In this document: piece by piece, positions 35,661-55,109 of the stretch
How positions within the stretch are numbered: the stretch's first letter is position 1
Layout: each line of letters starts with the position of its first letter
Origin: an uncultured Alphaproteobacteria bacterium
GTDB lineage: Bacteria > Pseudomonadota > Alphaproteobacteria > Rs-D84
DNA length: 64,000 nucleotides
Assembly (NCBI GenBank): GCA_947367055.1
Contig: CANBCI010000003.1
Location: 24,175 to 88,174, forward strand
Direction: 5' to 3'
Notes under the pieces: model-generated
Database searches by the model: none
Told to the model about the DNA's origin: nothing
The model's input: only the letters and a program-made list of their open reading frames with translations
Translations under genes and position numbers: made by a program

Positions 35661-35690
35661 AACGCCCCAAACGGGGCGTTTCATTTGTTT
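35661..35690 (+). terminator. Rho-independent terminator
   Basis: AACGCCCCAAACGGGGCGTT followed by a T-run. Confidence 0.6.
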
Positions 35691-36090
35691 TAATACAATT
35701 TTTTCCTTTACTATTCAATATGCTTTACCTATAATCCAAATCGGATTTCAAACGGAAATTTGAAATTCGGGACTTAGAAACTCTAAAAAAAATCGATGTA
35801 AAAGCATCGTTAATCGCATGGCGGTAAAAATTTACCGCATGCCCCGACATCTTTGTCGGGTTGTTGTTAAGCGCATATATTTTATGCGTATGGCAATGGT
35901 ACACCTTGCCCCAAAGTTGCTAAATTCCCGACTGTCAAATAATGTTTGACGGTTTCTTTTTTTCCCGTAACGAAATCCGCACAAAATTAACACCGGACGG
36001 ATGCGCATGTCATATCCAAAGCATGCGAAATTAGGAAAACCGTTTTCTGATTGTTTGAACATCCGTCCAAAAGTATAAGGACAAACCACA

Positions 36091-36945: not shown

Positions 36946-36957
36946 AAGGGACAAATC

Positions 36958-39685: not shown

Positions 39686-40198
39686 TCATGCGGCAAGTCC
39701 GCAAACACGCCAATACTTTACACTGCCATTGGCATTGCTGGATTGGCATGAAGCGTTCAAAATATTGCCCTGCACGGTAAAGGCGGTTGATGTTCTGTTG
39801 CGAAATGCAAACAGGTTTATATTATTGTTTGCCGTTTGACATTCGCCGCATAAAAACACATGGTAATTTGCATCCGACATTTCAATCGGCATTGTTATCG
39901 TCTGGGCGCTGGTGCGTCCACCTTGTTCCACCCAGCCGGATTTATATTTCCGGTACCATGTGTATTCATTATCCGACGTGGGCGTTTGCCATTCAACCAC
40001 ATAATCTATATCGGCCGGCAATGTGCCGCCCCCGGCTGGCAATGCATCCGCACGCGCCAATGCAATGCCGCCCGGCGTCGCACCGTCGTGTACCCGCAGC
40101 GTCTTGCCGGTTGTATCATAGGTCACCTCGCCTTCTAGGCCGGTGAATTCTTTGTGTTCGTCAGCGTTGCCACGACGAATCTGAATCGCTCTGGACAT
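39686..40198 (-). CDS. phage tail fibre N-terminal domain protein
   Basis: MSRAIQIRRGNADEHKEFTGLEGEVTYDTTGKTLRVHDGATPGG matches the conserved tail-fibre/tropism-determinant N-terminal motif. RBS AAGGAAGGAG. Confidence 0.6.
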   Translation of the reverse strand: MSRAIQIRRGNADEHKEFTGLEGEVTYDTTGKTLRVHDGATPGGIALARADALPAGGGTLPADIDYVVEWQTPTSDNEYTWYRKYKSGWVEQGGRTSAQTITMPIEMSDANYHVFLCGECQTANNNINLFAFRNRTSTAFTVQGNILNASCQSSNANGSVKYWRVCGLAA

Positions 40199-40260
40199 TT
40201 TTCTCCTTCCTTTTGCCCAGTTTTCCGATTGTTTGAAACTGCATAAAAAATTGCGGCGGC

Positions 40261-40530
40261 CTATTTCATGACCGCCGTCTTGATAAGCGTGACATCTTCT
40301 TTTATTCCGTCGATTTTCGACTGCAACTGGCCGATGCCGGTTTCCAGTATCGTCGTCCGCGTTTCCAGTGCGGCTATACGGTTGTCGGCGCGTTCCAGTT
40401 CCGCCAGTGACGAATCCTGGCGCGCGACCCAGTAAATCAGCCCCGCAACAAAGGCAATCAAAAACCAACTGTCGCGCAGGAAATCAACCACGCCCATAAA
40501 ATTTTGTTCATTTGACATTATGTTCTGCAA
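40261..40530 (-). CDS. phage membrane protein with coiled coil (hypothetical)
   Basis: One TM (WFLIAFVAGLIYWV) plus a coiled coil. Confidence 0.4.
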   Translation of the reverse strand: MQNIMSNEQNFMGVVDFLRDSWFLIAFVAGLIYWVARQDSSLAELERADNRIAALETRTTILETGIGQLQSKIDGIKEDVTLIKTAVMK

Positions 40531-40571
40531 AACGCGCCGCCGATACGTATATAACCGGCGGCGCGAAAAAA

Positions 40572-40763
40572 TTACTTGCCCCTCTCTATTAAATGCTCAA
40601 TTTGGTGAACCAGGGCGCGTTGCGCTTCCAGGCCGCGCAATTCCGCATCCGACGCACCCGGCCCCAGAACACGTTCAATTGTTATGCGGCGCAAATGCTG
40701 CATAACCGCCGCGCCCGCCGCCGTCGCAAAGGCCCGGGCAAAATTTTGTTCTATATCCCGCAT
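40572..40763 (-). CDS. hypothetical small protein
   Basis: 63-aa ORF between phage genes. Confidence 0.3.
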   Translation of the reverse strand: MRDIEQNFARAFATAAGAAVMQHLRRITIERVLGPGASDAELRGLEAQRALVHQIEHLIERGK

Positions 40764-40778
40764 TTAGTTTCCTCCTGT

Positions 40779-42014
40779 TTACAATACTTGTTGCTCGGCC
40801 GCGGCCATTCGAACAATCGGCGCGACGTATTTCAATTCAGCATCACTGTGCAGAACAATTTTTTCAATTTCGCCACGGCGCGACAATATCTGCAGGCCGC
40901 GATCCACCAACGGTCGAATAAATTCATGCAGCAACCGCCCGTATGTCGCCCCCAATATCCGAACCATATCGGCGTTTCGCGCCAGAATTTCCGTCGCGGT
41001 CATTTCTTTTTCCGACAGCAAGCCCAATCTGTCCGCCAATAATGCATGCCGAATACGTTCGCGCAAATCTTTTAATATCAGTTGCGACACATCAAAGTCC
41101 GCCCCCGACGCCAATGGCGTCAGTCCCGATGACCCGACCGCCTTGGGTATAATTGCGCCCGGTGTCAAATTTATATTAGCCAGGTTGATTACACCGTCAT
41201 CGTCGGCCTGCCATATGCCGGAAACGGCGATTGTCGCATTTTTCAGAACTAGTTCCACTACCTTGTTTGCGGTCTTGATATCCGGCAATGCACGCAACAC
41301 CGGCCCGCGGCCATACATTTCGCCACTGGCGACCGACCAACGGAATATCAAATACGGATTTGTTTCAAACCGCCCGTGCGCAACAATATTGTTTTCAATA
41401 TCGCCGCCGACATCCAACCATGCGGTAAAATCCTGGCCGATCAGGGCTTGGACCAAATTAAGCGGAATCTGCGGGTCTTTTTTTATCGCATCGCGCAGGC
41501 TTGCCGGTGGTGTCCATTCGGGGTATTTTTCCATGACATCCGCGGCCGGCATTGTCGCCGTATGGAACACGGCATCCTTTAATATCGCAATATCCGTCAT
41601 CGGAATTGCGGTAAAGGTGAACGCGGACGCCGCGCCAATCGGGTTTTCTGCCATAAACAGGCACGCCGTACCCAACACAACTAAATCCATATAACACTGA
41701 TGAACAGTCGTATAAAAATTGGAATCATTCAAATTCGCCCGCAACGCGTCCGTTGCCTGGGCGGCATCGGGTGACGCATCACTTTCCGGCATCAGCGATA
41801 TCCACATAGATTCCGGCGGTGTCAGCAACGAATACATTGATGCCGCCAGATTGTCGGCGGCGTCGCTTGCGGTTGCGTCAAACAGCATCGCCACATCATC
41901 GTCGGCCGTCGGCATTGTGTACTTTCGCGCACTGTCCCAGCGGGCAAGCCATGGCGCACGTGCATCCAGCGCGCGTCGATACATCTGTTGCAGATGTTTT
42001 ATGTCATTTGTCAT
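40779..42014 (-). CDS. T7-like head-to-tail connector (portal) protein
   Basis: N-terminus LDARAPWLARWDSARKYTMP resembles T7 gp8 LKNDRAPYETRAQNCAQYTIP. Central E.YGR...TA.EI...PLV blocks also align. Shorter than gp8. Confidence 0.65.
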   Translation of the reverse strand: MTNDIKHLQQMYRRALDARAPWLARWDSARKYTMPTADDDVAMLFDATASDAADNLAASMYSLLTPPESMWISLMPESDASPDAAQATDALRANLNDSNFYTTVHQCYMDLVVLGTACLFMAENPIGAASAFTFTAIPMTDIAILKDAVFHTATMPAADVMEKYPEWTPPASLRDAIKKDPQIPLNLVQALIGQDFTAWLDVGGDIENNIVAHGRFETNPYLIFRWSVASGEMYGRGPVLRALPDIKTANKVVELVLKNATIAVSGIWQADDDGVINLANINLTPGAIIPKAVGSSGLTPLASGADFDVSQLILKDLRERIRHALLADRLGLLSEKEMTATEILARNADMVRILGATYGRLLHEFIRPLVDRGLQILSRRGEIEKIVLHSDAELKYVAPIVRMAAAEQQVL

Positions 42015-42296
42015 ATATTCTCCTTTTTTCTTTGCAAAGAAATGTTGTTTGTATTATGATTCCCATGTCGCCGGGAATTCCGGTGATGGGGTTTGGAAAC
42101 CCGATAATCAGCGTCGCAAACACAACATAACGCAATGCGTCAATTTTGTTATTGCGATGAAAAAATACTCCTGGCACCGGGTCAGGAGGGTTGCGGAATA
42201 TTAAAAATACGCAACACAATTACTGATTAGTTGTTTCCAACCTCCTGACCGTCAAAAAATGACGGTTTTAGTTTGACTAAAACCAGGAGTTTGAAA

Positions 42297-42773
42297 ATGA
42301 AAAAACTGTTATTTATTAGCATAATATTTTTTATGCCAAGTGCCGGATTTGCGCTAGCGGTTGTGGATAGATGTAAAATGTTCTTTTGCATAACAAACCC
42401 GACACGCACCGCCCACTGTGACAGTATTTGCAGCACATGTTCTTCTGGAACAACCACATCAACCACAAACGGTGTCATAACTAAAACGCGAAAAGAACTG
42501 GTATATGACGCATGTCCGACAACAGAAGGCCAAACAATAGATTGCAACTGCGAAACTACATATACTTACTCTTGCGCAGAGGGATATTATGGCACACCGA
42601 ACAATTCGCTGCTCGGGTGCACCAGTTGCGTTAGCGCAACCGGCAACGCAAACGCCACATCAAAAGCGGGCGCAACCGCAATCACTGATTGCTATATACC
42701 AAATGGCACCACCGATACAGACGCCGGCGGCACTTATACGATTACCGGCGGCGACTGCAAATATTCATCATAG
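42297..42773 (+). CDS. secreted Cys-rich, Thr/Ser-rich small protein
   Basis: Signal peptide MKKLLFISIIFFMPSAGFA, 16 Cys. AT-rich pocket inside the phage region. RBS GGAG. Confidence 0.55.
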   Translation: MKKLLFISIIFFMPSAGFALAVVDRCKMFFCITNPTRTAHCDSICSTCSSGTTTSTTNGVITKTRKELVYDACPTTEGQTIDCNCETTYTYSCAEGYYGTPNNSLLGCTSCVSATGNANATSKAGATAITDCYIPNGTTDTDAGGTYTITGGDCKYSS

Positions 42774-43616
42774 TTTAAACTTGGTGTTCGCCTGTATCGG
42801 GCGCGATATAAATCCGCACGCATGCACCGCGGTAAATTCGGCGCATATCGCGCCCGCCACCGCATCCAGACCGTCGTCATGCGTGGTTGCCCCAACCGGC
42901 ATCCAGCCAATCATCTCGGCAATCAAGGGGGTTTGCGTGACGCGGCGGTGCGCATGCAGCCGCCCCGTTGTCAAAACCGGTTCAATTGCATTCAAGATTC
43001 TGTCCGCCTTGTTTGCGTGATTTGCAATTTTATTCACAACAACAGACACGCCGCGTCGCATTGCCGCGTCACGCATTATTTCCGGCAACGCATTTCCGAT
43101 TCCGTTTGTTTCAATCGTTATCCGGCGCATATGGTGGTGCGCCATAAATTCCAAAACCATTTCGCATTGCCGCGCCAACGGGTGCAATTCTTCGTCCCCG
43201 ACAACCAGGTACAGCACATCATGAATATATATATGCCGGTTTTTATCATCACGATATATCATAACGCAGACACTGCCGTCGGATTTTTTACGCCCCGACG
43301 ACGGGTCCCAGTAAATTGCGGCCCCGGTCATTAATGCATCGCCTATCTTTGCGGTGCGCAAATCAAACTCCGCATCATATATGTCCAACGCATCCGGATC
43401 CAGACGCGCCCTGTCAGGGGCAATGTATTCCAGCATCATTTGCGCGGCAAAGTGACGCGGGCCCACAACCTCTCGCAATTGTGCGATTGCAGGCGGCGGG
43501 AATTTTTCCGGCCACGCCGGGTTTCCGGCCGCGTCCACTATTGGAATTTTTAATTTCTGGTAGCCTTGCAAAAAAGGCGTTGAAAAAGCAAAATTTTCAT
43601 ATACTATATTTGGCAT
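42768..43616 (-). pseudogene. phage terminase large subunit, C-terminal nuclease domain fragment
   Basis: RNase-H-like terminase nuclease motifs (VCVMIYRDD..., ITIETNGIG, HDDGLDAVAGAI). No ATPase domain present. Start overlaps the dnaB start. Confidence 0.65.
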
Positions 43617-45165
43617 GGACTTTACTCCAAAAAATTTGCCCACCAATCTGGAAGCGGAACAGGCAGTTCTGGCCGCCGTGCTGATGAACAACCGCGCACT
43701 GGAACGCGTGTCGGAATTTCTAAAGGCGGAACATTTCTCGCACCCCGCGCACCAGGAAATTTACAAACTGGCCGAACGGCAATTTTCGGCGGGCATACCA
43801 TTTGATATAATCACCGCAAAAAACTACCTGGAACAACAGGGCGTGCTGGAATCGGTCGGCGGGGTTGATTACCTGGCCGAACTGTCCGGGGCGGGCGCAA
43901 CCGTTGTCAATGTGGAACAATACGGCCGCATAGTCTATGAAAACGCCCTGCGACGCGATTTGATAAACCTGGGGCAATCAATAACCGACAATGCGTTCAT
44001 CGAAGACCTGGATAATCCGGTTTCGCGCCAAATTGAAATGGCGGAACAAAAATTGTTCGAAATGGCCACCGCCGGCGCATCTGAACGCGAAATATCGTCA
44101 ATCGCAACCGCGTTGCAATCCGCCCTGCAAGAGGCGGAAATCGCCTACAAGGCAGACGGCCAATTATCAGGTCTGACAACGGGCCTGACGGCATTGGATA
44201 AATCAATCAGCGGTCTGCACCATTCCGATTTGATTATCATCGCGGGCCGACCGGCCATGGGTAAAACAACATTGGCGATGAACATTGCATTCAATGCGGC
44301 GTCTGCAATATCGTACGGCCGCGCAAACCCGCAATACAAGGGGGCCGTCGCATTTTTCAGTCTTGAAATGTCGTCATCGCAGTTGGCCGCGCGTGTTTTG
44401 TCGTCCCAATCCAAGATTCCCGCATCCGCAATGCGCGAAGGGAACCTGACCGACGAAGACATGTTAAAAATGTCCCAGTATTCCGCGGCAATCGGAAATG
44501 TGCCGTTGTATATTGACGACACGCCCGGAATGTCTGTGCCGATGATTCGCACGCGGGCGCGTCGCCTGGCCCGCAAATGTGGTGGTATCGCATTGATTGT
44601 GATTGACTACCTGCAACTTATGACATCGCCCGGCGGCAAACGCAATGACAATCGCGTTCAGGAAATCTCCGAAATCACCCGCGGCCTTAAAATGCTGGCC
44701 AAGGAATTGGATGTACCTGTAATCGCCCTGTCCCAGTTATCGCGTAGTGTTGAATCCCGTGATGACAAACGCCCACAGTTGGCGGACTTGCGTGAATCCG
44801 GATCTATTGAGCAGGACGCCGACATCGTCATGTTCACATACCGCGAAGAATACTATCTGGAAAACCGCGACCCGTCACAAAGATTGTCGGGCAACGCAAA
44901 CGCGAACATCATTGAAAGTTATAACAAGCGTCTGGAACGCGCCCGTGACCGCGCGGACATTATCATCGGTAAAAACCGCCACGGCCGTCCGGAAACCGTA
45001 CGCACCGCATTCTACGGCAACTACAGTCTATTCGACAATCTGGACGAGATGGAGGCACGCGGTCAAAACCCGTTTGACGCCGCCGCCACCGCCGCACCCC
45101 AGGCACCGATTGACCAAATCGATAATTTCGATGTCTCCGCAATTCCGGACGACATGGACATGTAA
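43615..45165 (+). CDS. dnaB: replicative DNA helicase DnaB
   Basis: N-terminal LEAEQAVLAAVL domain, Walker A GRPAMGKTTLAMN, and the H2, H3 and H4 motifs. Confidence 0.9.
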   Translation: MDFTPKNLPTNLEAEQAVLAAVLMNNRALERVSEFLKAEHFSHPAHQEIYKLAERQFSAGIPFDIITAKNYLEQQGVLESVGGVDYLAELSGAGATVVNVEQYGRIVYENALRRDLINLGQSITDNAFIEDLDNPVSRQIEMAEQKLFEMATAGASEREISSIATALQSALQEAEIAYKADGQLSGLTTGLTALDKSISGLHHSDLIIIAGRPAMGKTTLAMNIAFNAASAISYGRANPQYKGAVAFFSLEMSSSQLAARVLSSQSKIPASAMREGNLTDEDMLKMSQYSAAIGNVPLYIDDTPGMSVPMIRTRARRLARKCGGIALIVIDYLQLMTSPGGKRNDNRVQEISEITRGLKMLAKELDVPVIALSQLSRSVESRDDKRPQLADLRESGSIEQDADIVMFTYREEYYLENRDPSQRLSGNANANIIESYNKRLERARDRADIIIGKNRHGRPETVRTAFYGNYSLFDNLDEMEARGQNPFDAAATAAPQAPIDQIDNFDVSAIPDDMDM

Positions 45166-45229
45166 TTATTTTCTTGCGTCACTCTTAAATTTTGACTAAC
45201 ATTTTGTCAAGATATTAAGGAGGTTTGTA

Positions 45230-46237
45230 ATGGCCCAAGAAGAAATAATTTTTCCAAATAACATCAGAAACATTCGTCTGTCACGCGGCATGAAAATGAC
45301 CGAACTGGCGCGGCGTTCAAATTTGTCTTTGTCTGCTGTTTCAAAAATTGAAAAGGGGGTTCGCCGCCTTAATCAAAAGCAGTTGTTAAATATTTGCAAT
45401 ATTCTGGGTTGCAAACTGTCCGACATATTCATCAAGGAAAACGATGACGTCGCCGACCAGTGGCAAAATGAAATCAAGCGCAGACTGACCGACAACGAAG
45501 ACAGCGGTCTTAAAATATTCGGCAGCGGCTTGCGCAAAATCCGCCAACAGGCCGGCAAAACCATTGCCCAGGCCGCCCGTGATGCCGGCATGACCCTATC
45601 CGTTTATCACAAGATAGAGGTTGGTCAACGCGAAGTCTATGAAAACGAAATTGAACCATTGGCGAAATCATTTGCCATGAATGTTGAAACAATGTTTGAT
45701 AAAGTCGCGAACCTGTATAAATCCGGCGAATTAAACAAACAAATCAGCAAGGTCAAAGAACGTGTCAAATCAGTATTGGTTCCGGGCAATCCGATGTCCG
45801 GGCTGGATATGCACGGTGGACTGTACGGCGCAAAACTGTATGACAGCGCGCGCAAAAAACTGGTTCCGGTATTCGGCACCCCGGAGGGCAAGGCAATCGC
45901 ATTCAAGAAATCGGACGCAACAATGATTGTCGCCCCCATCGCATTGGAGGGCCGCAAGGGAATTTACGCCGTCGTTCCGAATTCAAAAAGACTGGGCGGA
46001 TTTATCCCCGAATCATCATATGTTTTTGCAGATGCGTTGACCGCGCCGGCGGCCGGTGACATGGCGGTATGCATTGACACCGATTTTGACGCATTGGATG
46101 CGGATGCGGTCGCAAATGCACAAATCGTCATGGTAAAATCCGATGCCAAGGGCAAACTTTACGGCCAGGTTTCATCACCGGATGAAAAAATTATCGGCAA
46201 AACCATGCACAAGGTAATAATGATTGTGATGGAATAA
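45230..46237 (+). CDS. tandem XRE-family HTH transcriptional regulator (phage-repressor-like)
   Basis: Two Cro/C1-type HTH units (residues about 10-65 and 95-150) and a C-terminal beta-rich domain, possibly a degenerate S24. Confidence 0.65.
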   Translation: MAQEEIIFPNNIRNIRLSRGMKMTELARRSNLSLSAVSKIEKGVRRLNQKQLLNICNILGCKLSDIFIKENDDVADQWQNEIKRRLTDNEDSGLKIFGSGLRKIRQQAGKTIAQAARDAGMTLSVYHKIEVGQREVYENEIEPLAKSFAMNVETMFDKVANLYKSGELNKQISKVKERVKSVLVPGNPMSGLDMHGGLYGAKLYDSARKKLVPVFGTPEGKAIAFKKSDATMIVAPIALEGRKGIYAVVPNSKRLGGFIPESSYVFADALTAPAAGDMAVCIDTDFDALDADAVANAQIVMVKSDAKGKLYGQVSSPDEKIIGKTMHKVIMIVME

Positions 46238-46259
46238 ACAACCACAGGAGGGGGTCGTC

Positions 46260-46937
46260 ATGCTAGCAAAGGCCAGCGTTATCGCACAAAGGTTATTAAA
46301 CCTTTACCGCCAAGAACATGTGATTTTCGGCGGTTGGGCGGCAATAAATCCGATATTTGTCGCGGATGCAACCCCCGATGTCATGGCGGAACTGCGTCAA
46401 ATGCCCACGGGGAAAATATTGCTGCGGCATATTGAAAACCTGCGCAGCGGCAAAACCCCGATGGATACGATTGAACGCGATTTGCTGCCCTATGGCGGTT
46501 TGATGACGGAATCTGTTGCAACAATAACACTTACCACTGCGGAATGGAACGAACTGGAACACGGGCTTGATAATTTCACCCCCGATCAGTCCGGGCTGGA
46601 CGCAATTGAAAACCTGAATGTCGTAAAGAAATTCGGCGACCAATGGCTGGTCGCAATTCGCGCGGCACTGAATGCGAAACCGCAATTGCTGGAAAAATGG
46701 GCCGCCGTCACCCAGACATATCGCGCGTACTATCTGTGGAAAGTCGCCAGCGACATGATTAACCAACCGCTGACCGACCGTGCCCGCGCCCAATTACAGG
46801 CAGATATGCCGGAATACGAAACATACCTGCCTATGTTTGGTGATGCGGGAACGGAACTGCTGTCAAAATTGCGCCTTGCAATCAGCGGTGTAAAACACAC
46901 CACGCAATCAGACGACACGATTTTTGCCGACAATTAA
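46260..46937 (+). CDS. hypothetical protein
   Basis: 225-aa ORF with RBS GGAGGGGG. No recognised domain. Confidence 0.45.
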   Translation: MLAKASVIAQRLLNLYRQEHVIFGGWAAINPIFVADATPDVMAELRQMPTGKILLRHIENLRSGKTPMDTIERDLLPYGGLMTESVATITLTTAEWNELEHGLDNFTPDQSGLDAIENLNVVKKFGDQWLVAIRAALNAKPQLLEKWAAVTQTYRAYYLWKVASDMINQPLTDRARAQLQADMPEYETYLPMFGDAGTELLSKLRLAISGVKHTTQSDDTIFADN

Positions 46938-47551
46938 TCATCTTCACCCGTGCGGTATATGGTGTCCATCGTATGCGGCGTACCGATATAAATCATGGCC
47001 CCCGTCGGCGACAATATAAAATCCAACTCGCGCAAGCGTTCACGCATATTTTCACGTTTTTGTGCGGTGTTGCATGTATTTGGTACTTCTATGTCGTCAC
47101 AGATTATTAAGTCCGCACGCATACCGGTTATGTTTCCGGAAATTCCCTGGCATATTACGGACGGTTCGCGGATTCCTATCGGTCGGTTCACAGTGATGCG
47201 TCCCGCAGCCCATTCGCGCCTTATTTGTGGAACCAAGTCCACGCATTTCGGATGATTTTCCAATATATTGCGTACATGCGACACCATTCGCGACGCCAGT
47301 CCGCTTTCCGCAGATAAAATCAATATGCGCGTTTCGGGCCGCATATATAAAACACATGCGGCAAAAATACCGACAACTGTAGATTTTCCGGAATGTCGAA
47401 ACGCGGTCAGCAATCCGCGATGCGGCGCATCGCACCAAATATGCACCAAGAATTCCATAATCTGTCTATGGTGCCGCGGCGTTGTTAGTCCCAGAATATT
47501 ATTCCACTCGTCCAGAAATTTACAAAACTCCGTAGTCATCGCGATTTTCAT
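46934..47551 (-). pseudogene. phage terminase large subunit, N-terminal ATPase domain fragment
   Basis: Walker A FRHSGKST and Walker B LIICDDIE. Ends ...GTPHTMD at a stop abutting the convergent gene. Confidence 0.65.
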
Positions 47552-48080
47552 TCGGTGCCGGATCCGTTATGCTGCCATAGTCATTGATTAGTTCCGGCAA
47601 TGCGTTTTCCAAAACCTGCAACAGATTGTTATAAAGCCCCAGCACGCCGCCGCCTGATAATTTGTCTTCGATTAAGTTAACCGTATAATCCAGAAAATGC
47701 TTTATATTGTCATGAGTATTCGCCCATTCGGTCAAATCGACATCAACACTTCGCAGGTCCAGCAACGCATTAAGCAAAAAATTAAAATCGGCGTTCAAAT
47801 GTTCCGGATCTATCTTGGCGGTGGGCTGATAATCAACAACCCGCGACAAGGCGATTTTCCGAAAAATGTCAATATGCGCGCCTTTGCCCGGTGCGTTCAA
47901 GATAACAACATTGCCGCCATTGAATTCATCATTCGGATATACGGCATATTGATCGTCACCCAACAGCTTGTCATCAATACTAACATGAATATCGGCGGCT
48001 TGAAAGAACGGAAACGCGAACAGAAATTCATTCGTTTCACCATCGCCGATATATGAAATCTTGTACATTTCATCCCCCAC
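47520..48080 (-). CDS. phage hypothetical protein
   Basis: ORF in the structural cluster. Confidence 0.4.
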   Translation of the reverse strand: MGDEMYKISYIGDGETNEFLFAFPFFQAADIHVSIDDKLLGDDQYAVYPNDEFNGGNVVILNAPGKGAHIDIFRKIALSRVVDYQPTAKIDPEHLNADFNFLLNALLDLRSVDVDLTEWANTHDNIKHFLDYTVNLIEDKLSGGGVLGLYNNLLQVLENALPELINDYGSITDPAPNENRDDYGVL

Positions 48081-48081
48081 A

Positions 48082-48429
48082 TTATCCGATTAACGAATCA
48101 AAGCGCCCCAACAGGGATTTCAACAAATTCGGTTTTTGAACTTTTATCTTGCTCAATTTTTCCAAATTGTTGCGCCGTTTTTCATTATACGGTTCCTCTG
48201 TTTCGGATTTTAAGCGTTTTAGAACCGCCCCTTCGGTCACACCGCCGTTTGACATTCCGGCCGCGCCGTATTTCGCGCGTTGTGCCGCCAGATTCTTTTT
48301 TACCAAATTGACCTTGGCCTTTTCGTCCGCCGCCATTTGTTCCAGAATTTTCTGGCGTTCGTTTTTGGCTTCTTTTTTTGCTTTTTTATAATCCAAGATA
48401 TCTGTCACCTCTGATATGGTCTGCCCCAT
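48082..48429 (-). CDS. phage hypothetical basic coiled-coil protein
   Basis: Lys/Glu-rich 115 aa. Confidence 0.4.
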   Translation of the reverse strand: MGQTISEVTDILDYKKAKKEAKNERQKILEQMAADEKAKVNLVKKNLAAQRAKYGAAGMSNGGVTEGAVLKRLKSETEEPYNEKRRNNLEKLSKIKVQKPNLLKSLLGRFDSLIG

Positions 48430-48448
48430 TTTTTACTCCTTTGTAGAA

Positions 48449-50161
48449 TTAAACGGTATATCGTCCGTTAATCGTCACGGACAATATGGTCGCCGGCAAC
48501 TGCTCATCGCTGTGCACGGTCCATGATGCCGACATGCAATCATATTGCGTCCCCAGGCAATTTATGGATACGTCACCAGAAAATCCGGCGGCGTTTGTTT
48601 CATAAATCCGGTCCGGCAATGTTACACGTTCGCCGTTTATAAATATTGTTTTCGTATTTAAAATACGCGCAGATATTTTTCGCAACCGTATGCGCGACAC
48701 GCTGTGCCCGGACGCATACATCGGCAACGCGGATGCCCGGAAAGAAAAATTATACTGCCCGGCGTCTTTAAGTGCGCCGTCGGCAAACTTTTCTATTAAA
48801 AACGCATCGCCGCGTTCAACGATGACATACGTCTCGCCATCCATTACGGCGACGGCTTTGAACTGGCCGCTGGTTTTATAGCGACCCCACGCCGAAATCC
48901 CCAATGCTGAATTTTGGTTCAGTACGGCCATTGCCCCGTCCGCCATAACCACGAACAATTGCCGCGTCTTGTCATTATATGCAACGTCGACGGGATTGTT
49001 CATCAGATGCTTTGAAAACGCACATAAATCGTTCGCGTTGTAATTTTCCCCCAACTCGTCCAGACTTAATTCACGTATGTCCTTTTGACTGGCGGAAATG
49101 AAAACAGTTGCGCCCTCTATCTTTTGCGGCGGCAGATAACGCGATGCGACACTGCCGACAGACGTGTGCTGTTTTATGTCCACCGCCGACGGCGTAAGGG
49201 GTTTGTTTGATATGGCCCATTCGCCGACCGTGGTCAATATCTGCAGATTTTCACTGCTGACGACGGTGCAGATTTGCTGGCGCTGCTGCGATAACAATGT
49301 GATAAATATCGCCTCGTCATCAAGGCCGGTTCCCATATTAAAGTTCGTATGCCGGCCGACCTGTGACATCCAAACGCCACTGGGCCATGTTTTAGACCCA
49401 CCAAAAACCAATCTATCCTGGTGAAATGTTATGCTGCATGGCCAACCGCGCCGGTTACTGAATGCGGATTCACGCCAATCAGATACCGGGCCTGATGGCA
49501 AACTGTATGTGCCGTTCGTATAAGCCACCACATTAGTCGGGCTTTCGTACGAATTGATTATCCACTGCTTGCCATTTATTTCCAGACGTGATCCGACGCT
49601 CTCGGCCGTCCAGAAACTTTGGTTTGTGGTAAGGTTCGCAAAATTATTCCCCGATGCCGTACTTATCGTGATTGTGATGCCTTCGGAATCGTCAAAGCGC
49701 ATAAACGGCATATTCAAAGTCATATCGGCATCATTACGCGCAAATCCGAACGGCCTTAAATTAAACTCGTTACCGTTCTTTGACAATGTCTGCGGCTGAT
49801 AATCCGGATGAACAAAAATTATCGTTCCAAATCTTTGCGCATACTGCAGGCGGCCCAAATCCTCCTTGCTCCATGGGGCCAATATGCTTTTTATACGAAC
49901 GCCATTGGAATAAACCCCGATGTTCGTTGAACTCAAGACCAGCAAATAATTCTCATCTTCCTGAACAGAAAACGGAATCAGGCGCGTTGCGCCCCATGCT
50001 GTCGCCACCGACACGGTGCCACGACGACGCGTCAGTCCGCCACCGGCCAAAACATCCATGTTTTCCAGAAACGAAACACCGCGTATGTCATCGCGCGCAA
50101 AAAATTCCGGGGCAACTTCGCCATATGCGAATGAATTTTGTGTCTTTATAAAATCTGCCAT
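48449..50161 (-). CDS. T7 gp12-like tail tubular protein B (shortened)
   Basis: N-terminal N..GGEV.P...R.D..G...LEN...GGL..RRG pattern resembles the gp12 N-terminus. Sits downstream of a gp11-like gene. Confidence 0.5.
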   Translation of the reverse strand: MADFIKTQNSFAYGEVAPEFFARDDIRGVSFLENMDVLAGGGLTRRRGTVSVATAWGATRLIPFSVQEDENYLLVLSSTNIGVYSNGVRIKSILAPWSKEDLGRLQYAQRFGTIIFVHPDYQPQTLSKNGNEFNLRPFGFARNDADMTLNMPFMRFDDSEGITITISTASGNNFANLTTNQSFWTAESVGSRLEINGKQWIINSYESPTNVVAYTNGTYSLPSGPVSDWRESAFSNRRGWPCSITFHQDRLVFGGSKTWPSGVWMSQVGRHTNFNMGTGLDDEAIFITLLSQQRQQICTVVSSENLQILTTVGEWAISNKPLTPSAVDIKQHTSVGSVASRYLPPQKIEGATVFISASQKDIRELSLDELGENYNANDLCAFSKHLMNNPVDVAYNDKTRQLFVVMADGAMAVLNQNSALGISAWGRYKTSGQFKAVAVMDGETYVIVERGDAFLIEKFADGALKDAGQYNFSFRASALPMYASGHSVSRIRLRKISARILNTKTIFINGERVTLPDRIYETNAAGFSGDVSINCLGTQYDCMSASWTVHSDEQLPATILSVTINGRYTV

Positions 50162-50176
50162 AAGAAATCCCCCGTA

Positions 50177-50695
50177 TTAAAAGCGCGTGTTTATCAATGA
50201 AAATGCACCAATCTCCACACCGGTCGAGGTTGTGCTGTCTATAAACTTGGCGGACTGAATTTCAGATTCATACAATGCGACAAGCATTCTGAACACGGTT
50301 TGATCGCCGGTCAAAGGTATGCAAAATTCCATCGCCAGTTTTGTCGCGGCAAGGGATGCAAAATAGCTGGGAAAATTCTCAACCGGAACACGCACAACCG
50401 CCGAAATATGTGCCGTATCAGACCGGGCCAAAATTTTGTTTCCCACAATTTGCCCGTCGCATTTCAAGATGCGGATGCAATCGGCGGGAATTAAAAAATC
50501 GCCGTCGGCATTTTTTACCAAATCAACATTACGCGTGGCAAATCGCCACGGATGCGACGCAATCAAAGCATCAACCACCGGGTCAAACAGTGTCCGCGCC
50601 AGACGCGACGCCGCACTGTCGTCACTTAAAGACTGCACCGGTTGTTCGCCCAGTTTCAGCAACGCCATCGAACACAAATCTATTTTGGTAAGCAT
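50177..50695 (-). CDS. T7 gp11-like tail tubular protein A
   Basis: LGEQPVQSLSDDSAASRLARTLFDPVVDALIASHPWRF aligns with gp11 [38 protein letters not shown]. Similar length. Confidence 0.6.
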   Translation of the reverse strand: MLTKIDLCSMALLKLGEQPVQSLSDDSAASRLARTLFDPVVDALIASHPWRFATRNVDLVKNADGDFLIPADCIRILKCDGQIVGNKILARSDTAHISAVVRVPVENFPSYFASLAATKLAMEFCIPLTGDQTVFRMLVALYESEIQSAKFIDSTTSTGVEIGAFSLINTRF

Positions 50696-50780
50696 TTTTG
50701 CCTCTATTGTTTATCAAGTACAACAAACGGGCCGCCGACATAACGACGGCGGCCCGACACAAAAAACCAATTGCTATGCG

Positions 50781-51014
50781 TTAAGACAACGCCGCCGTTT
50801 TTACAACACCCGAATCAATCGAGATCTTTTTCATTCCCGTATTATCAGACGCGTTGATAATCACAATGTCGCCGGCATTCATCAATGTTTTAACATTGTC
50901 AAAATAACCGTTGGCTGTTATTGCGGTCATCGTTTCCGATGTCGCCGCATAATGCCACAGTGTGAATCCGTTCGCATATGCGATGACCGACAAATTCTTG
51001 TTTTGAAACGCCAT
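50781..51014 (-). CDS. phage hypothetical small protein
   Basis: 77-aa ORF between the capsid and gp11-like genes. Confidence 0.35.
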   Translation of the reverse strand: MAFQNKNLSVIAYANGFTLWHYAATSETMTAITANGYFDNVKTLMNAGDIVIINASDNTGMKKISIDSGVVKTAALS

Positions 51015-51036
51015 TTTTCTTTCCTTTGGTTAATTG

Positions 51037-51894
51037 TTATTTATTCTGGGCGGTTTGAGAAGCATCGGCCACAACTTTCACATCGCTGCACTTTACACGG
51101 ATAATTCCGTCGTTATCAATCAACACCGCGCCCTGGGACATGCTGTTGCTGATAAAGTGTGCGGCGCGTTCGCCATGCCATGAAATATCTGTTTTGACTT
51201 CCTGGCCGCATGCATGACCAATGCTGGACGCATGATATATAAAGCAATCGCGCTTGTTGCTGGTGACCGGCAAACCGTTATGCAGTACCCATGTGATGCC
51301 CAGCCATTTGCGGCTTTCGAAACCGTTGACCAGTGGTGAATCCGCCCCGACATAATCTGCGGAAATAAATTCATCCATTGACAACAGTTCATTCCACTGA
51401 TGCACGCCGACAACCGCGAAACGACGACCGTCATCGGGAACATCGGCGGCATTTAATTTTTCAACCGCGCTTAAAATCAGGTCTTTGGTAAGTTCGGTTG
51501 TGTAATCACCAACACTGGTTGTCGCCGTGTTCATAGCGTCGATAATCAGTTCATCGGTTTTGCGCCCCAGGGCATATGCACCGGCACTGGCAACAACACG
51601 ACGCTCATCAACATTGGTTTTCAATTCATCCAACGCATCAACCCAATCGCCGGCATAATAATCCTGCAAAACGCATTCAACCGGTTCATGGTTCAAATTC
51701 ATCACGGGAACAATACCGTGGCGAGACTTTGTGCTGGCGGTGCCGCGCCCAACTTTCTGGAAAGTTGTCGACGCGCCGACAACACCGGATTTACTGCGAA
51801 TTGTGGAACGCAGTTTTGTGCCCATCTGCTGATATGCCAAATGGACATCGGCTTCAAATTGTTTCACGAAGACTTGATCTATGGAAACAGACAT
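51037..51894 (-). CDS. T7-like major capsid protein
   Basis: Start MSVSIDQV with AAAGGAA RBS. F.K.F...RS.IRSKSG..F..VGRGTA resembles the gp10A N-terminus. C-terminal block resembles gp10 ...HRSAVG.... Confidence 0.65.
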   Translation of the reverse strand: MSVSIDQVFVKQFEADVHLAYQQMGTKLRSTIRSKSGVVGASTTFQKVGRGTASTKSRHGIVPVMNLNHEPVECVLQDYYAGDWVDALDELKTNVDERRVVASAGAYALGRKTDELIIDAMNTATTSVGDYTTELTKDLILSAVEKLNAADVPDDGRRFAVVGVHQWNELLSMDEFISADYVGADSPLVNGFESRKWLGITWVLHNGLPVTSNKRDCFIYHASSIGHACGQEVKTDISWHGERAAHFISNSMSQGAVLIDNDGIIRVKCSDVKVVADASQTAQNK

Positions 51895-52126
51895 AACAAA
51901 TTCCTTTTGATTAAAAATTAAAAACAGGCGCAAAATCGCGCCGATGAAATTTTGTTTTCTGGTTGTGCAATCAATGCGCCATGAAACAAAACGGTACCGG
52001 GGTCCAAATCGGATTGCCCCGGAATTTATGTTCAGTCGCACTGTGAAATTCACACGCATGCAACTGAACATAAAAAAATCCCCGTACGGGGATAAAAATA
52101 AAACCCCCGCAATGCGGGGGAAAACA

Positions 52127-52489
52127 TTATTTTTTCTTTGCAACCGGTTTTTTGGCGGCAACTTTTTTAGCAGCTGGTTTCGCAACTACTTTTTTCGCGG
52201 CCGGTTTTTTTGCAACAACTTTCTTTGCAACCGGTTTTTTAGCGGCAACTTTTTTCGCCGCCGGTTTCGCAACTACTTTCTTTGCAGCCGGCTTTTTAGC
52301 AGGCGCAGCTTTTTTAGCAACAACTTTTTTTGCAACCGGTTTCGCGGCAACTTTTTTCGCCGCCGGTTTCGCAACTACTTTTTTCGCGGCCGGCTTTTTA
52401 GCAGGCGCAGCTTTTTTAGCAACCGGTTTCGCCGCCGGCTTTTTAGCGGCAGGTTTCTTCGCGGCTGGCTTTAAGAATGTGAATGCCAT
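52127..52489 (-). CDS. histone H1-like Lys/Ala-repeat DNA-binding protein
   Basis: MAFTFLKPAAKKPAAKK... followed by about 110 aa of (K/P/A/V) repeats. RBS AGGGAGAG. Confidence 0.6.
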   Translation of the reverse strand: MAFTFLKPAAKKPAAKKPAAKPVAKKAAPAKKPAAKKVVAKPAAKKVAAKPVAKKVVAKKAAPAKKPAAKKVVAKPAAKKVAAKKPVAKKVVAKKPAAKKVVAKPAAKKVAAKKPVAKKK

Positions 52490-52596
52490 TCTTCTCTCCC
52501 TTATTTTTATTTTCCTTATAGAACAAATTATTTTTTGTTCATACTTATATTTTATATGAAACATAAAAATTAGTAAAGAAGAAAGTGCAATTTTTT

Positions 52597-53253
52597 CTAT
52601 GAATACAACTTTTTAAAACCGTTTTCTATTTTTCGAACATATTCCGGGTCGGCATCACGCCAATATTTCGGGTCACGCATCATGCGTCGTAAATCACCGT
52701 CGGTCAAATTTTCAGCCACGCTTTTATCCGTTTCCACACTTGGTTCCATTGACTGCATCATCTTGTAGACGCTTTGGATTCCCTGGGCTGTGGCGCATAA
52801 TTCTTCAAACGCATCACTGGGTAAAAACTTTTCACCGAATGTATTTATCGCCTGCAATGCATCATTCATTTTTTCACGCGACCCGAAAAATTTTTCCAGT
52901 TCCGCGATTGCTGTCGTCTCGTTTTGCATCCGGAACAAATCAGACAAAACCGGCGACAAAAATTCTTCGGCAATGGAATAGATTTGTTCGACTTGCTTTG
53001 ACGTCAATCCGATTTCATGAAATTTTTCGCGCAATTGCTCATCATCAAACAGTGCGTTTGACGGATACTCCGCCGCCGTTTCCGGCACACCTATTGCGCG
53101 TTTGAAGCGCATACGCGTTGCATCATCCGAATCATCTGTCGGCACAGAAATCATTGTGCCCATCTTTTTTTCCAATTCACGATATGATTTAATCAGTGCC
53201 TCTTCGTTTAATGTTCCGTTTTCATTCAGAAATTTTTCTGGAATTTTTTCCAT
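52597..53253 (-). CDS. putative capsid scaffolding/assembly protein
   Basis: Acidic, helical. Sits immediately upstream of the capsid gene in the gp9 position. Confidence 0.4.
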   Translation of the reverse strand: MEKIPEKFLNENGTLNEEALIKSYRELEKKMGTMISVPTDDSDDATRMRFKRAIGVPETAAEYPSNALFDDEQLREKFHEIGLTSKQVEQIYSIAEEFLSPVLSDLFRMQNETTAIAELEKFFGSREKMNDALQAINTFGEKFLPSDAFEELCATAQGIQSVYKMMQSMEPSVETDKSVAENLTDGDLRRMMRDPKYWRDADPEYVRKIENGFKKLYS

Positions 53254-53443
53254 CTTCACGTCCTTTGGTTTCACTAGATTTTCGCAGAAAATATATTCCG
53301 CCCAATGTAAATATTGCCTGCAGCATTGCAAACATGTCCGTATCGCCGACCAAATATGCGGCGACCGCGGATAAAATTCCGACGCCTGACATGATGTAGG
53401 TTTTTTTATCGGCCAGGAATCCCCCGCTTATAATTTTTCGCAT
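53222..53443 (-). CDS. holin-like small membrane protein
   Basis: Two hydrophobic helices (GVGILSAVAAYLVG and FAMLQAIFTLGGIYFL) with a charged C-terminus. Adjacent to the endolysin. Start uncertain. Confidence 0.3.
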   Translation of the reverse strand: MRKIISGGFLADKKTYIMSGVGILSAVAAYLVGDTDMFAMLQAIFTLGGIYFLRKSSETKGREDGKNSRKISE

Positions 53444-53453
53444 TTCGCCCCCA

Positions 53454-53861
53454 TTACAGATAAAACAGCAGCCCGTCCACATCAGCGATATAACCACGCG
53501 CACGCGCCCAATCCGGCATTTGCGTCGACATATGAAATCGCGTTGCCCCACTACAACAATCCGGCAGGTTTCCGCGCATCATTCGCGACACCACCCGCAG
53601 ACACATTTCAAATCCGCGACAGTTCACATCAATATCCGACACCGCACAATCGTCCGGCGCATTAAAAATTTCGCAATCGCGCACAACATCTATAACACTT
53701 CGGTTTGTTTTGCGTGCATTGTTCGCAATCATTGATGCAAGCGCCTCAACCACCGCCAGCGACGATGCGTTTGTTTGCGCGTATACCACGCGCGCAATTT
53801 CATAAATTGGACGCAGACTTTCATCCGGGTTTTTAATCAGTGTCAATTGCATGTGCATCAT
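53454..53861 (-). CDS. SleB-like cell-wall hydrolase (phage endolysin candidate)
   Basis: IARVVYAQTNASSLAVVEALASMIANNA...SVIDVV and C-terminal CCSGATRFHMST resemble the Hydrolase_2/SleB family. AAGGG RBS. Confidence 0.55.
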   Translation of the reverse strand: MMHMQLTLIKNPDESLRPIYEIARVVYAQTNASSLAVVEALASMIANNARKTNRSVIDVVRDCEIFNAPDDCAVSDIDVNCRGFEMCLRVVSRMMRGNLPDCCSGATRFHMSTQMPDWARARGYIADVDGLLFYL

Positions 53862-54019
53862 CCCTTGGCTAGAAAAATAAAAACCCGTACGCATGTGTAC
53901 GGGTAAAAAAACACCCCGGTTCGGGGCAAAAACAATCTGTGCTGTTTATGTTTTATATAATATCATAAATCGGTCAAAAAGTCAAGCATATATTTTCAAA
54001 CCCGGGGAAACCGCGGCAT

Positions 54020-54685
54020 TCACATCGTTATTTCATCCCCGTAAACCAGCAGATATTCCGCACCGCGCCGCAGAACAAGTGCGCCGCATTCGTTAATCTC
54101 AATCAACTGCGCGGGCATTCCCTGATATTTTATATTTTCATTCAGTCCCGCCGCAAAATCCATCCAGCGCGAACGCACCGTCTGAAAATCGGCATGTATC
54201 CATTTGTCCAATTTGCGCATCAAAACCTGCAACAGGTCATTGCGCGTCACCGTTGCATAATTTTCCATTTTGGTTGTTTTATAGCTTTCAACCGTCGGAT
54301 TTGATTTTATATTGATTCCGATTCCGACAATGACAAAACGACCGGAATACTCAATCAACGTGCCGGAAATTTTCATGCCGTCGATTAAAATATCATTGGG
54401 CCACTTGATTGTCGGCCGCGCACCAAATGACGCAATTGATTCCGCAATTGCGACGGCAACCGAATACGACAGACGCGGGTCACGTTCTTCGCAGTCAAAG
54501 ATAAAACTGACATACAAATTGCCATGATGCGAAACCCATGTGCGCCGATAGCGCCCGCGCCCGGCCGACTGTGCATCGGCGACAACCGCGATGTGATCCG
54601 CGGCATCGCCCCGCGCAATAAGTTCGTGCGCATACGTCTGCGTGCTGGGGATTTTATCAAAAGACAAAACTTTATATGTGGCCAA
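54020..54685 (-). CDS. birA: biotin--[acetyl-CoA-carboxylase] ligase
   Basis: GRGRYRRTW motif. BPL catalytic domain without an N-terminal HTH. Confidence 0.85.
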   Translation of the reverse strand: MATYKVLSFDKIPSTQTYAHELIARGDAADHIAVVADAQSAGRGRYRRTWVSHHGNLYVSFIFDCEERDPRLSYSVAVAIAESIASFGARPTIKWPNDILIDGMKISGTLIEYSGRFVIVGIGINIKSNPTVESYKTTKMENYATVTRNDLLQVLMRKLDKWIHADFQTVRSRWMDFAAGLNENIKYQGMPAQLIEINECGALVLRRGAEYLLVYGDEITM

Positions 54686-55109
54686 GGCTGTACACTCCGT
54701 TGGTATTTATTATAAAATCGCGCCCGTAGGTTTTGCGCAATTGATAAATTGCGGTATCAATTGTATGTGTTGCCGCATCCGGCGCATATCCCATCGCCTG
54801 TTTTAATTCGTCCCCTGTCATTGCGCCGCGCCGCCGCAACCAGACGACAATTTGACTTTGCATTCTGGGCAAACGAACATTTTTTCCAAACACATCGCGA
54901 ATAACCCCGGAATTATCCAGCGCATCCAAAATCATCGTTTTTAATTCCAAAGAATTTAGCGGCGCCTTGATTTTCAAATCATCAAAATTCACCTCGGCAT
55001 TACTTGGGCTTTCAACCAATACGGCATGCAGATTGCCTAAAATATGCCGCCATATATCATCCGATGAAAAAATACGCACACCTTTTAACATATATAAAAC
55101 ATAGCCCAT
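54672..55109 (-). CDS. winged-helix (OmpR/trans_reg_C-like) DNA-binding protein
   Basis: C-terminal LPRMQSQIVVWLRRRGAMTGDELKQAMGYAPDAATHTIDTAIYQLRK resembles the OmpR-type wHTH. Confidence 0.45.
   Translation of the reverse strand: MGYVLYMLKGVRIFSSDDIWRHILGNLHAVLVESPSNAEVNFDDLKIKAPLNSLELKTMILDALDNSGVIRDVFGKNVRLPRMQSQIVVWLRRRGAMTGDELKQAMGYAPDAATHTIDTAIYQLRKTYGRDFIINTNGVYSLGHI

Follow-up and report, generated by a model that had tools for sequence, protein, structure and literature searches.

A conserved T7-like podovirus-derived gene cluster in gut Alphaproteobacteria of the order Rs-D84 as a candidate gene transfer agent-like element

Introduction

What keeps a set of T7-like phage genes in the genomes of strongly reduced gut bacteria? 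The question is raised by a cluster of ~14 kb (39686-53894, minus strand) in the 64 kb stretch of DNA analysed here (the window), which comes from an uncultured member of the order Rs-D84 (Candidatus Enterousia and relatives), a group of gut Alphaproteobacteria. Profile searches identify T7-like head, tail, DNA-packaging and lysis genes in the cluster, which adjoins birA and takes up ~1.5% of a genome of ~0.9 Mb. Enterousia-type hosts are genome-reduced gut bacteria of ~0.75-1.0 Mb that have dropped the tricarboxylic acid cycle and respiration and, being extremely reduced, probably rely on other cells; the paper describing them does not mention phage-like genes (PMC12306168).

A preliminary description had taken the locus either for an old, decaying prophage or for a domesticated particle-producing element. 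We find that the genes are intact, are under strong purifying selection and have diverged along with the replicative helicase gene dnaB across the order. To judge from these patterns, the cluster is very probably domesticated and functional, and if so the chances that it resembles a gene transfer agent (GTA) are about even or slightly better. Our preferred account, in which we place reasonable but not strong confidence, is that a T7-like podovirus gave rise to a domesticated, vertically inherited particle cluster, which is most likely GTA-like and under antitermination control. Retention of the cluster by the whole order suggests that the bacteria use it, probably for GTA-like particles. Few GTAs are known, and to our knowledge the well-studied alphaproteobacterial ones all descend from one siphovirus-like ancestor. 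The literature searched on Enterousia, Rs-D84, podovirus-like or T7-like GTAs and split terminases holds no account of the cluster, and the only podovirus-like GTA candidate in it is an element of Faecalibacterium reported in 2026 (PMC12946183).

The cluster is syntenic, intact and under purifying selection

The C-terminal piece of the cluster's terminase, used as a profile, retrieved 237 relatives among GTDB contigs representing one genome per species, and the best 80 of the 237 were used for comparison; counts below 80 refer to the loci covering the gene concerned. Except for a few generic or apparently mis-binned entries, these 80 are labelled Candidatus Enterousia or uncultured Alphaproteobacteria/Rickettsiales, and they include one circular long-read chromosome of 958,618 bp. 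Comparison with relatives for presence or absence, named in the preliminary description as a check, finds the cluster at the same site in all 80 genomes examined. Gene order, a split terminase, an embedded dnaB block and the birA neighbour are the same in every covering locus of these species-level genomes. From birA the order runs through endolysin, holin, scaffold, capsid, tail tubular proteins A and B (tube A and tube B), a gene for a protein of 115 amino acids (aa), a fibre N-domain gene where present, and the N-terminal terminase piece (terminase-N). An orphan gene, a regulator gene with two helix-turn-helix (HTH) domains and dnaB follow on the other strand, and then the C-terminal terminase piece (terminase-C) and the portal. 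The open reading frames (ORFs) are full length in nearly all loci (capsid 70/72, tube A 70/72, tube B 70/71, portal 76/77, terminase-N 71/74, terminase-C 80/80), and overall the cluster ORFs are intact in ~96% of loci.

Between the window and its closest relative, at synonymous divergences (dS) of 0.28-0.85, the ratio of nonsynonymous to synonymous substitution (dN/dS) lies in the range 0.02-0.10 (capsid 0.024, portal 0.020, each terminase half 0.041, tube B 0.052). The ratio for dnaB is 0.018, to which those of capsid and portal are comparable. Protein distances for capsid, portal, tube B and both terminase pieces correlate with those for DnaB, itself encoded within the cluster, with Mantel r of 0.63-0.78 (0 of 500 permutations as high), and by pairwise protein distances the capsid is on average better conserved than DnaB. 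Capsids are 81-92% identical between species. A database search with the capsid finds 3850 relatives, the best 120 of which are 79-98% identical and lie on contigs of up to 969 kb; those of the 120 that carry a source name are all labelled Alphaproteobacteria bacterium.

Neutral erosion of a cryptic prophage remnant would account for what is lacking (integrase, replication genes, core proteins, small terminase, full fibre), for the interruption of the terminase gene, and for deletions in three related species. In these three (L037, L046 and L063) tube A, tube B and the 115-aa gene are removed or truncated while terminase-C and the dnaB block are kept, and L037 also has a truncated capsid match. 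An old, decaying prophage is contradicted by the single order and site in 80 of 80 species-level genomes with ORFs at full length, by dN/dS values that resemble that of dnaB at dS of up to 0.85, and by the invariant catalytic motifs of both terminase pieces and the conserved cis-regulatory elements described below. Synteny, intact ORFs, low dN/dS, co-divergence and invariant motifs together rule out a neutrally eroding prophage, and we regard a decaying or cryptic remnant as extremely improbable. The domesticated particle-producing element of the preliminary description fits the synteny, the intact ORFs, the purifying selection and the invariant motifs, the particles being predicted from the genes.

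Head, tail and lysis genes

The proposed T7-like ancestry was to be checked by profile searches of each ORF, and these support the capsid, portal and tail-tube assignments. All of the genes concerned lie on the minus strand: the T7 gp9-like scaffolding protein (52597-53256; PF05396, E value 3e-10; full length in 58/60 loci), the major capsid protein of T7/HTVC010P podovirus type (51037-51894; PF19821, E 4e-70), tube A, a gp11-like adaptor (50177-50695; PF17212 and phrog_394, E 1e-33), tube B, a gp12-like nozzle (48449-50161; phrog_376, E 5e-83), and the gp8-like portal (40779-42014; PF12236, E 5e-84). The profile matches thus agree with the preliminary assignment of all five genes. A tail-fibre N-domain protein had also been recognized correctly: the 186-aa product of 47520-48080 (minus strand) matches the N-terminal, tail-attachment domain of the T7 tail fibre (phrog_1640, E 2e-11; the PF03906 match falls below the Pfam cut-off). 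Its gene is a variable accessory part, found in 45 of ~72 loci. The split large terminase, the dnaB block, three small genes and a histone-H1-like gene had been overlooked.

Three genes are assigned to lysis. The first gene after birA (53454-53894, minus strand) had been called a SleB-family hydrolase; no Pfam or NCBIfam match bears out that family, and an endolysin-like hydrolase is supported by a match to phrog_938 endolysin (E 4e-7) and by homology (E 1e-11) to a Skermanella protein with the PF07486 Hydrolase_2 domain. Conservation among orthologues begins at Met15 (53852), which is probably the true start. The adjacent 73-aa small membrane protein (53222-53443, minus strand) is holin-like in its position, its two hydrophobic segments and its charged C-terminus, in keeping with the preliminary label, and is conserved across loci (median identity 76%); it matches no family. 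The last conserved gene of the cluster (40261-40530, minus strand; intact in 73/76 loci) encodes a membrane-anchored coiled-coil protein, and in Skermanella a similarly built protein is encoded after the terminase, upstream of endolysin and holin.

A two-piece terminase encloses a dnaB operon

The large terminase subunit is encoded in two pieces on the minus strand. Terminase-N (46934-47551; phrog_38 positions 272-459, E 3e-41) contains the ATPase core with Walker A, Walker B and motif III, all three invariant in 73 orthologues, and terminase-C (42768-43616; phrog_38 positions 468-700, E 6e-38; PF17289, PF22530) contains the ATPase lid and the RNase-H-like nuclease, with invariant YWDPS, ETNGIG and HDDGLDA motifs. 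The ATPase and nuclease domains are never on one chain, being two ORFs in the window and in 80/80 relatives. When the two pieces were joined as a query, terminase-C was found as a separate ORF of 279-282 aa in >100 protein clusters, and intact terminases (470-501 aa, for example in Skermanella), colinear with the two pieces, appeared only at 43-46% identity. The break lies ~10 residues past motif III, and a short 'IY' motif is duplicated on either side of it. On the simplest reading of the sequences the pieces are two polypeptides that would assemble non-covalently. Protein splicing by a split intein was rejected, because the pieces total 487 aa, the length of an intact homologue, and are colinear with it, leaving no room for an intein. 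Programmed excision of the intervening DNA was likewise rejected: neither direct nor inverted repeats flank the block, it encodes no recombinase, and its junctions differ between species.

The terminase halves are separated by a 3.2 kb block on the opposite strand (43615-46937, plus strand). The first gene (43615-45165) encodes a cellular-type DnaB replicative DNA helicase: its score of 606 bits clears the NF006606 equivalog cut-off of 540, and its 408 bits fall short of the 499 required by the phage_DnaB model, so that a phage origin was rejected. The second (45230-46237, plus strand) encodes a regulator with two XRE-type HTH domains (PF01381, two matched stretches) and a C-terminal domain; the N-terminal HTH is nearly invariant throughout the order and dN/dS is 0.038. 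In sequence the C-terminal domain might be taken for an S24 domain of LexA/CI type; among orthologues the position of its would-be catalytic serine is occupied by S, T or Q, hhalign against a small LexA/CI/UmuD alignment gives a probability of 6%, and a single-sequence AlphaFold model has a pLDDT of only 37. The last gene of the block (46260-46937, plus strand) encodes an all-helical orphan protein of 225 aa (intact in 74/74 loci; AlphaFold pLDDT 79) with 1265 homologues; among the 120 listed, all are from this clade and none has a Pfam domain.

The two transcription units are tightly interlocked at both junctions. The stop codons of terminase-N and the orphan gene overlap in TTAA and the start codons of terminase-C and dnaB in CATG, while the terminase-C ribosome-binding site (GGAG) lies inside dnaB codons 2-5. 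A dnaB promoter (TTGAAA, spacer, TACTAT; 43580-43607, plus strand) is embedded within the first terminase-C codons and is near-invariant in 61 loci. Only seven bases separate its TACTAT -10 element from the dnaB ATG, so that dnaB is probably translated from a leaderless mRNA. The near-invariant promoter also explains why synonymous-codon entropy, 0.75 on average, drops to 0.12-0.45 over the first ~25 codons of terminase-C on the opposite strand. In three loci (L059, L071 and L079) dnaB starts ~32 nt further downstream with a ribosome-binding site of its own and the embedded promoter is kept, indicating that leaderless and leadered forms of the junction coexist in the clade.

This nesting could in principle preserve a functionless passenger, held in place by embedded essential genes (dnaB, perhaps also the regulator) and by promoter overlap: with dnaB between the terminase halves and its promoter in terminase-C codons, deletion would be costly. 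Linkage guards against deletion, however, and not against point mutation. Structural genes up to 10 kb from dnaB are all intact, with dN/dS of 0.02-0.10, and the synonymous constraint due to the dnaB promoter spans only ~25 codons, which makes a mere passenger very improbable.

Promoter and terminators point to antitermination

Of all sites in the region, the one most like a promoter (TTGACT, 17 nt spacer, TG-n-TATTAT with extended -10; 53957-53985, minus strand) lies just downstream of the birA stop codon, and its CTTGAC and TG-n-TAnnAT elements show little or no variation across 22/22 aligned leaders. This leader promoter is followed by a conserved short stretch, two tandem intrinsic-terminator-like hairpins with T runs (53912-53928 and 53883-53904, minus strand), a ribosome-binding site and the endolysin start. 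Leader hairpins of this kind, one or two, are present in 21/21 loci that include the leader. Further terminator-like hairpins on the minus strand lie inside the operon, where the hairpin scan finds two in tandem after the histone-like gene (52104-52120 and 52078-52093) and at least one, often two or more, between scaffold and capsid in 58/60 loci. Another follows the capsid and 77-aa genes (50731-50750; in 54/71 loci), in a position analogous to that of the T7 terminator after gene 10, and one follows the coiled-coil gene at the end (40254-40277; in 46/74 loci). Inside coding sequence the background is 0.03 per kb. The positions of the hairpins are fixed and their sequences differ between species; a whole-leader alignment misaligns them and its consensus fold is uninformative, so the counts rest on a per-locus hairpin scan.

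A different structure lies ~170 nt upstream of the capsid ATG, a 16-bp hairpin (AAATATTCAGTCNGA, loop, TCNGACTGAATATTT, T run; 52025-52074, minus strand). Its outer arms TTCAGT and ACTGAA are invariant, the strict pattern occurs at a fixed distance in 50/66 loci, and a GGAYAATCC-type motif is found downstream of it in 59 loci. Compensatory double changes at 11 of the 16 pairs together with G-U wobbles on the sense strand (RNAalifold) point to an RNA structure, one that has no Rfam match.

A strong promoter directed into terminators, with further terminators inside a lysis and morphogenesis operon, leads us to predict antitermination control. The leader promoter would fire into the tandem terminators, and full expression would need a processive antiterminator. 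The late genes of phage lambda have such a layout, with the PR' promoter, the tR' terminator and the Q antiterminator, and like the cluster they combine a strong, constitutive-looking promoter, immediate terminators and a long lysis and morphogenesis operon with further terminators. The likeness is architectural only, and no Q-like protein or Q-binding element has been identified in the cluster. The layout also resembles that of the GTA cluster of Caulobacter, whose internal terminators are read through by RNA polymerase with the help of the dedicated antiterminator GafZ (PMC11150451). No regulator of the GafA/GafYZ type has been recognized in the Enterousia cluster; the double-HTH protein and the orphan protein are positional candidates for its controllers.

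On the sense strand of the cluster, terminator-like hairpins are absent across the dnaB block (0.038 per kb, 71 loci), and the dnaB operon likewise has no terminator-like hairpin past the orphan-gene stop. An internal terminase-C promoter was sought within the 5' codons of dnaB and not found: synonymous variation shows no dip there and no signal is conserved. Since neither a terminator nor a conserved promoter was found from one terminase half to the other, terminase-C, the portal and the last two genes would have to be reached by a late transcript that reads antisense through the orphan, double-HTH and dnaB genes and over the dnaB promoter. The expression of the late genes and that of the helicase would then antagonize each other, and particle production would be tied to shut-down of the replicative helicase. 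A further-reaching version of the GTA-like account, which we rate as unlikely, makes the cluster an independently evolved T7-type podovirus GTA family with a two-piece motor and a hard-wired replication interlock. In such an interlock the late transcript, antisense through dnaB (taken as the cell's only copy), would combine with the leaderless promoter to turn the helicase off at commitment, and conversely normal dnaB transcription would suppress leaky late expression. If this is true, retention in genomes of ~0.9 Mb implies that DNA exchange, or another role of the particles, is near essential for these gut symbionts.

Relatives of the cluster and the question of mobility

The nearest cultured phage is the Pelagibacter phage EXVC031P (OQ414635.1), a T7-like podovirus whose PF19821-type capsid is 44.5% identical to the cluster capsid. 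Its portal, scaffold, tube A, tube B and fibre N-domain are homologous to those of the cluster, as is a 63-aa protein encoded after the portal (40572-40763, minus strand; intact in 75/75 loci), which is 48% identical to the product of an EXVC031P gene located between portal and scaffold. Unlike the cluster, EXVC031P is a free phage of 34 kb with many genes that have no counterpart in Enterousia, and the slot of the T7 core proteins, after tube B, is taken in it by proteins of 783 and 1247 aa. No match was found between the terminases of the two.

Closer relatives, with capsids 54-63% identical, are the human-faecal contig MT838907, ~24 IMG/VR contigs and a cassette in Skermanella mucosa (CP086106.1, 4969801-4991306, in a 6.4 Mb chromosome). 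For the cassette and the IMG/VR contigs the range of capsid identity is 54-61%. The Skermanella cassette is compact (~13 kb) and near-identical in gene set and order: portal, scaffold, capsid, a small protein, tube A, tube B, a charged 202-aa protein, a tailspike, a 106-aa protein, an intact 501-aa terminase, the membrane coiled-coil protein, a Hydrolase_2 protein and a protein with a weak GTA_holin_3TM match, with host genes on the right flank. It differs from the Enterousia cluster in having a single-chain terminase, the portal before the scaffold and a full tailspike, and in lacking the dnaB block and the histone-like gene. Compared with this order, Enterousia has the portal and 63-aa block swapped with the block of coiled-coil, endolysin and holin genes, has gained the histone-H1-like gene, has cut the spike to its N-domain or lost it, and carries the dnaB block inserted in the terminase. 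The gene order is thus permuted relative to T7, as first described, and is near that of the relatives with intact terminases apart from the swap of adjacent blocks. Like the Enterousia cluster, the Skermanella cassette and the intact-terminase relatives in IMG/VR have no large core proteins, so that this loss predates the Enterousia lineage. The wider Skermanella-type family may also be domesticated. In the Skermanella cassette the tailspike is of pectate-lyase type, and a HigA-like/zinc-finger XRE pair lies between scaffold and capsid.

IMG/VR holds 36 contigs with the Enterousia cluster, dnaB block included, that are listed as viral. Together with the distant intact-terminase relatives on viral contigs and in Skermanella, they could be taken to mean that the element is still mobile and infects the group time and again, either as an active temperate phage or as a satellite dependent on a helper. 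Most of these contigs, however, start exactly at the capsid gene and so look like provirus cut-outs. No integrase, excisionase, phage polymerase or primase was found in the cluster or the window, nor a phage-type single-subunit RNA polymerase or DNA replication genes in the window. There are no repeats at the dnaB-block junctions, the outer cluster boundaries not having been searched for them. The chromosomal site is identical in all species and divergence tracks that of dnaB, and we consider continued mobility highly unlikely. As a temperate prophage the cluster would be anomalous, with no integrase and a single site in every relative examined; as a T7-like virion it has the portal, scaffold, capsid and gp11/gp12 tube, and lacks the core proteins, RNA polymerase and replication genes.

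A GTA-like role is the preferred reading

Several properties expected of a GTA are found in the cluster. It is chromosomal and vertically inherited (with the caveat that dnaB is linked), it is under purifying selection at host-like rates, and it has no replication, integration or excision genes. Its inventory (portal, scaffold and capsid, tube A and tube B, the two-piece terminase, the endolysin, holin-like and coiled-coil proteins, and four small conserved proteins) describes a short-tailed, DNA-filled particle plus cell lysis and nothing else. As in GTA systems, a subpopulation of cells would make DNA-filled podovirus-like particles and lyse. The two terminase pieces and the portal rank with the most constrained genes, which suggests that DNA packaging itself is selected. 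Packaging would probably be unspecific, the lack of a small terminase being compatible with the packaging of random host DNA but no proof of it. Delivery of the DNA, if any, would probably rely on uptake functions of the recipient, as it does for RcGTA.

The closest parallels in organization are RcGTA and CcGTA (Rhodogtaviriformidae), which are likewise chromosomal, vertically inherited clusters of ~14 kb with head, tail, terminase and lysis genes, without integration or replication genes, and under purifying selection. They differ in ancestry, which is unrelated: RcGTA forms an HK97-type siphovirus-like particle, whereas the Enterousia cluster is T7-type, has a split terminase and encloses an essential host gene. 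The Skermanella relative shares with GTAs a weak match to PF11351 (GTA_holin_3TM) and a Hydrolase_2 endolysin. The element of Faecalibacterium prausnitzii (FpGTA), which its authors call the first podovirus-like GTA, is also a gut GTA-like element of probable podovirus-like morphology (PMC12946183). It is found in Firmicutes, occupies two loci and has been shown experimentally to package host DNA (PMC12946183), and its likeness to the cluster is one of description.

A number of observations weigh against the GTA-like account. The cluster is known from genes alone, all genomes being metagenome-assembled and the organisms uncultured, despite which the arrangement recurs in 80 independent assemblies, and the reference for co-divergence, dnaB, lies physically inside the cluster. 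The large internal core proteins of gp14, gp15 and gp16 type, on which T7-like phages depend for DNA ejection, a small terminase (Pfam, PHROG and NCBIfam profiles) and a full-length tail fibre, reported missing in the preliminary description, are indeed absent from both the cluster and the 64 kb window, and about one third of species have no fibre gene of any kind in the cluster. Phage-style injection is unlikely, given the lack of ejection proteins and the many species that have no fibre. The terminase break falls inside the ATPase domain. Tail-gene loss in L037, L046 and L063 suggests that particle function is dispensable in some lineages; these species are natural partial knock-outs that could reveal the cost of particle loss. 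GTAs are also expected to have a head smaller than the encoding locus, and this may well not hold here, with a locus of ~14 kb and genomes of ~31-37 kb in free phages with a PF19821-family capsid. With respect to antitermination, no antiterminator was identified in the cluster, a PDB profile search aimed at the C-terminal domain of the double-HTH regulator gave HTH matches only, and the orphan protein is matched neither by a family in Pfam, NCBIfam or PHROG nor by a fold in the PDB (best Foldseek E 2). Alternatively, the promoter and terminators of the leader could serve to make a small RNA or simply to end birA transcription.

Some of the same observations would suit a domesticated particle or lysis system put to a use other than transfer, such as subpopulation lysis that releases cell contents, particles directed against competitors or the animal host, or DNA disposal or storage. 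The lack of ejection proteins and the patchy occurrence of fibres speak against efficient DNA delivery, the lysis genes come first after the promoter, and the extremely reduced hosts probably depend on other cells (PMC12306168). On the other hand, the strong conservation of the terminase pieces and portal places DNA packaging itself under selection, and the complete nozzle of tube A and tube B is kept. We consider a non-transfer use doubtful.

Among domesticated phage particle systems the cluster is unusual in combining a two-piece terminase with a nested essential operon. With ~1.5% of a reduced genome kept for it and a capsid better conserved than the replicative helicase, it is a strong candidate case of a T7-like phage domesticated independently, in abundant uncultured bacteria of the human and livestock gut. 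Three oddities of the locus are testable: the large terminase is divided within its ATPase domain and strong purifying selection acts on each half, an essential host operon is nested in the cluster, with promoter and ribosome-binding signals that overlap, and promoter and terminators are arranged much as in lambda, together with a covarying RNA hairpin. Should particles be produced, they would matter for DNA exchange among genome-reduced gut bacteria and for the reading of viromes and provirus predictions, IMG/VR already labelling the region viral.

Small and accessory genes and the surroundings of the cluster

Between tube B and the fibre N-domain gene lies the gene for the 115-aa protein (48082-48429, minus strand), which is charged, apparently helical, intact in 70/70 loci and without a family match. 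It fills the slot occupied in T7 by gp13-16 and is the sole candidate in the cluster for an internal or ejection protein. The 202-aa protein in the same position in Skermanella is similarly charged, a likeness of charge and position and not of homology. A 77-aa protein encoded between capsid and tube A (50781-51014, minus strand; intact in 71/71 loci, dN/dS 0.10) has homologues in the matching position in Skermanella and MT838907.

The histone-H1-like gene (52127-52489, minus strand) encodes a Lys/Ala-rich protein with AAKKPAAKK repeats and weak, below-cut-off matches to PF07382 HC2 and NF038053. In 60 loci the gene lies between those for scaffold and capsid, ahead of the tandem terminators, and it is missing from this position in MT838907 and Skermanella. 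We speculate that its product might condense DNA for or during packaging.

In the window a gap of ~750 bp between terminase-C and portal, only ~30 bp in most relatives, contains an ORF on the plus strand (42273-42773) for a Cys-rich protein of 166 aa with a signal-peptide-like N-terminus; homologues occur in few loci, for example L087.

At the distal end of the cluster a second accessory gene (39686-40195, minus strand) encodes an Mtd_N-domain fibre-like protein (PF18454, E 1e-12). This variable gene occurs in ~12-15 loci only, all of which also have the fibre N-domain gene. It adjoins a glycosyltransferase island of low G+C content (34506-39656, plus strand; 0.37-0.40) that starts just past genes for tRNA-Ala and tRNA-His (33908-34073). 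The stretch past the last conserved cluster gene is highly variable in relatives and often holds other glycosyltransferases, suggesting that a surface-glycan locus adjoins a candidate receptor-binding gene.

The remainder of the window is ordinary housekeeping DNA (ligA, murA, PBP1, grpE, tpiA, recG, bamA, rseP, birA, parC, zapA and map) and two low-G+C islands, and an Rfam scan of the window gives two tRNAs as its sole matches. The second island (1-5600; G+C 0.32-0.35 against ~0.48 elsewhere) contains a KAP-family P-loop NTPase gene (1389-2555) and three ORFs without a family match (2849-4108, 4123-4782 and 4976-5581), and may be a defence island or otherwise horizontally acquired. Overlapping the start of birA, a 145-aa ORF (54672-55109, minus strand) has no family match and is 55% identical in the few loci that reach this far. 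At 24257-26716 (minus strand) a YraN-like nuclease gene (UPF0102) is followed by three genes, one with a VirB8-like domain, and this gene set recurs near the cluster in many relatives, mostly beside bamA.

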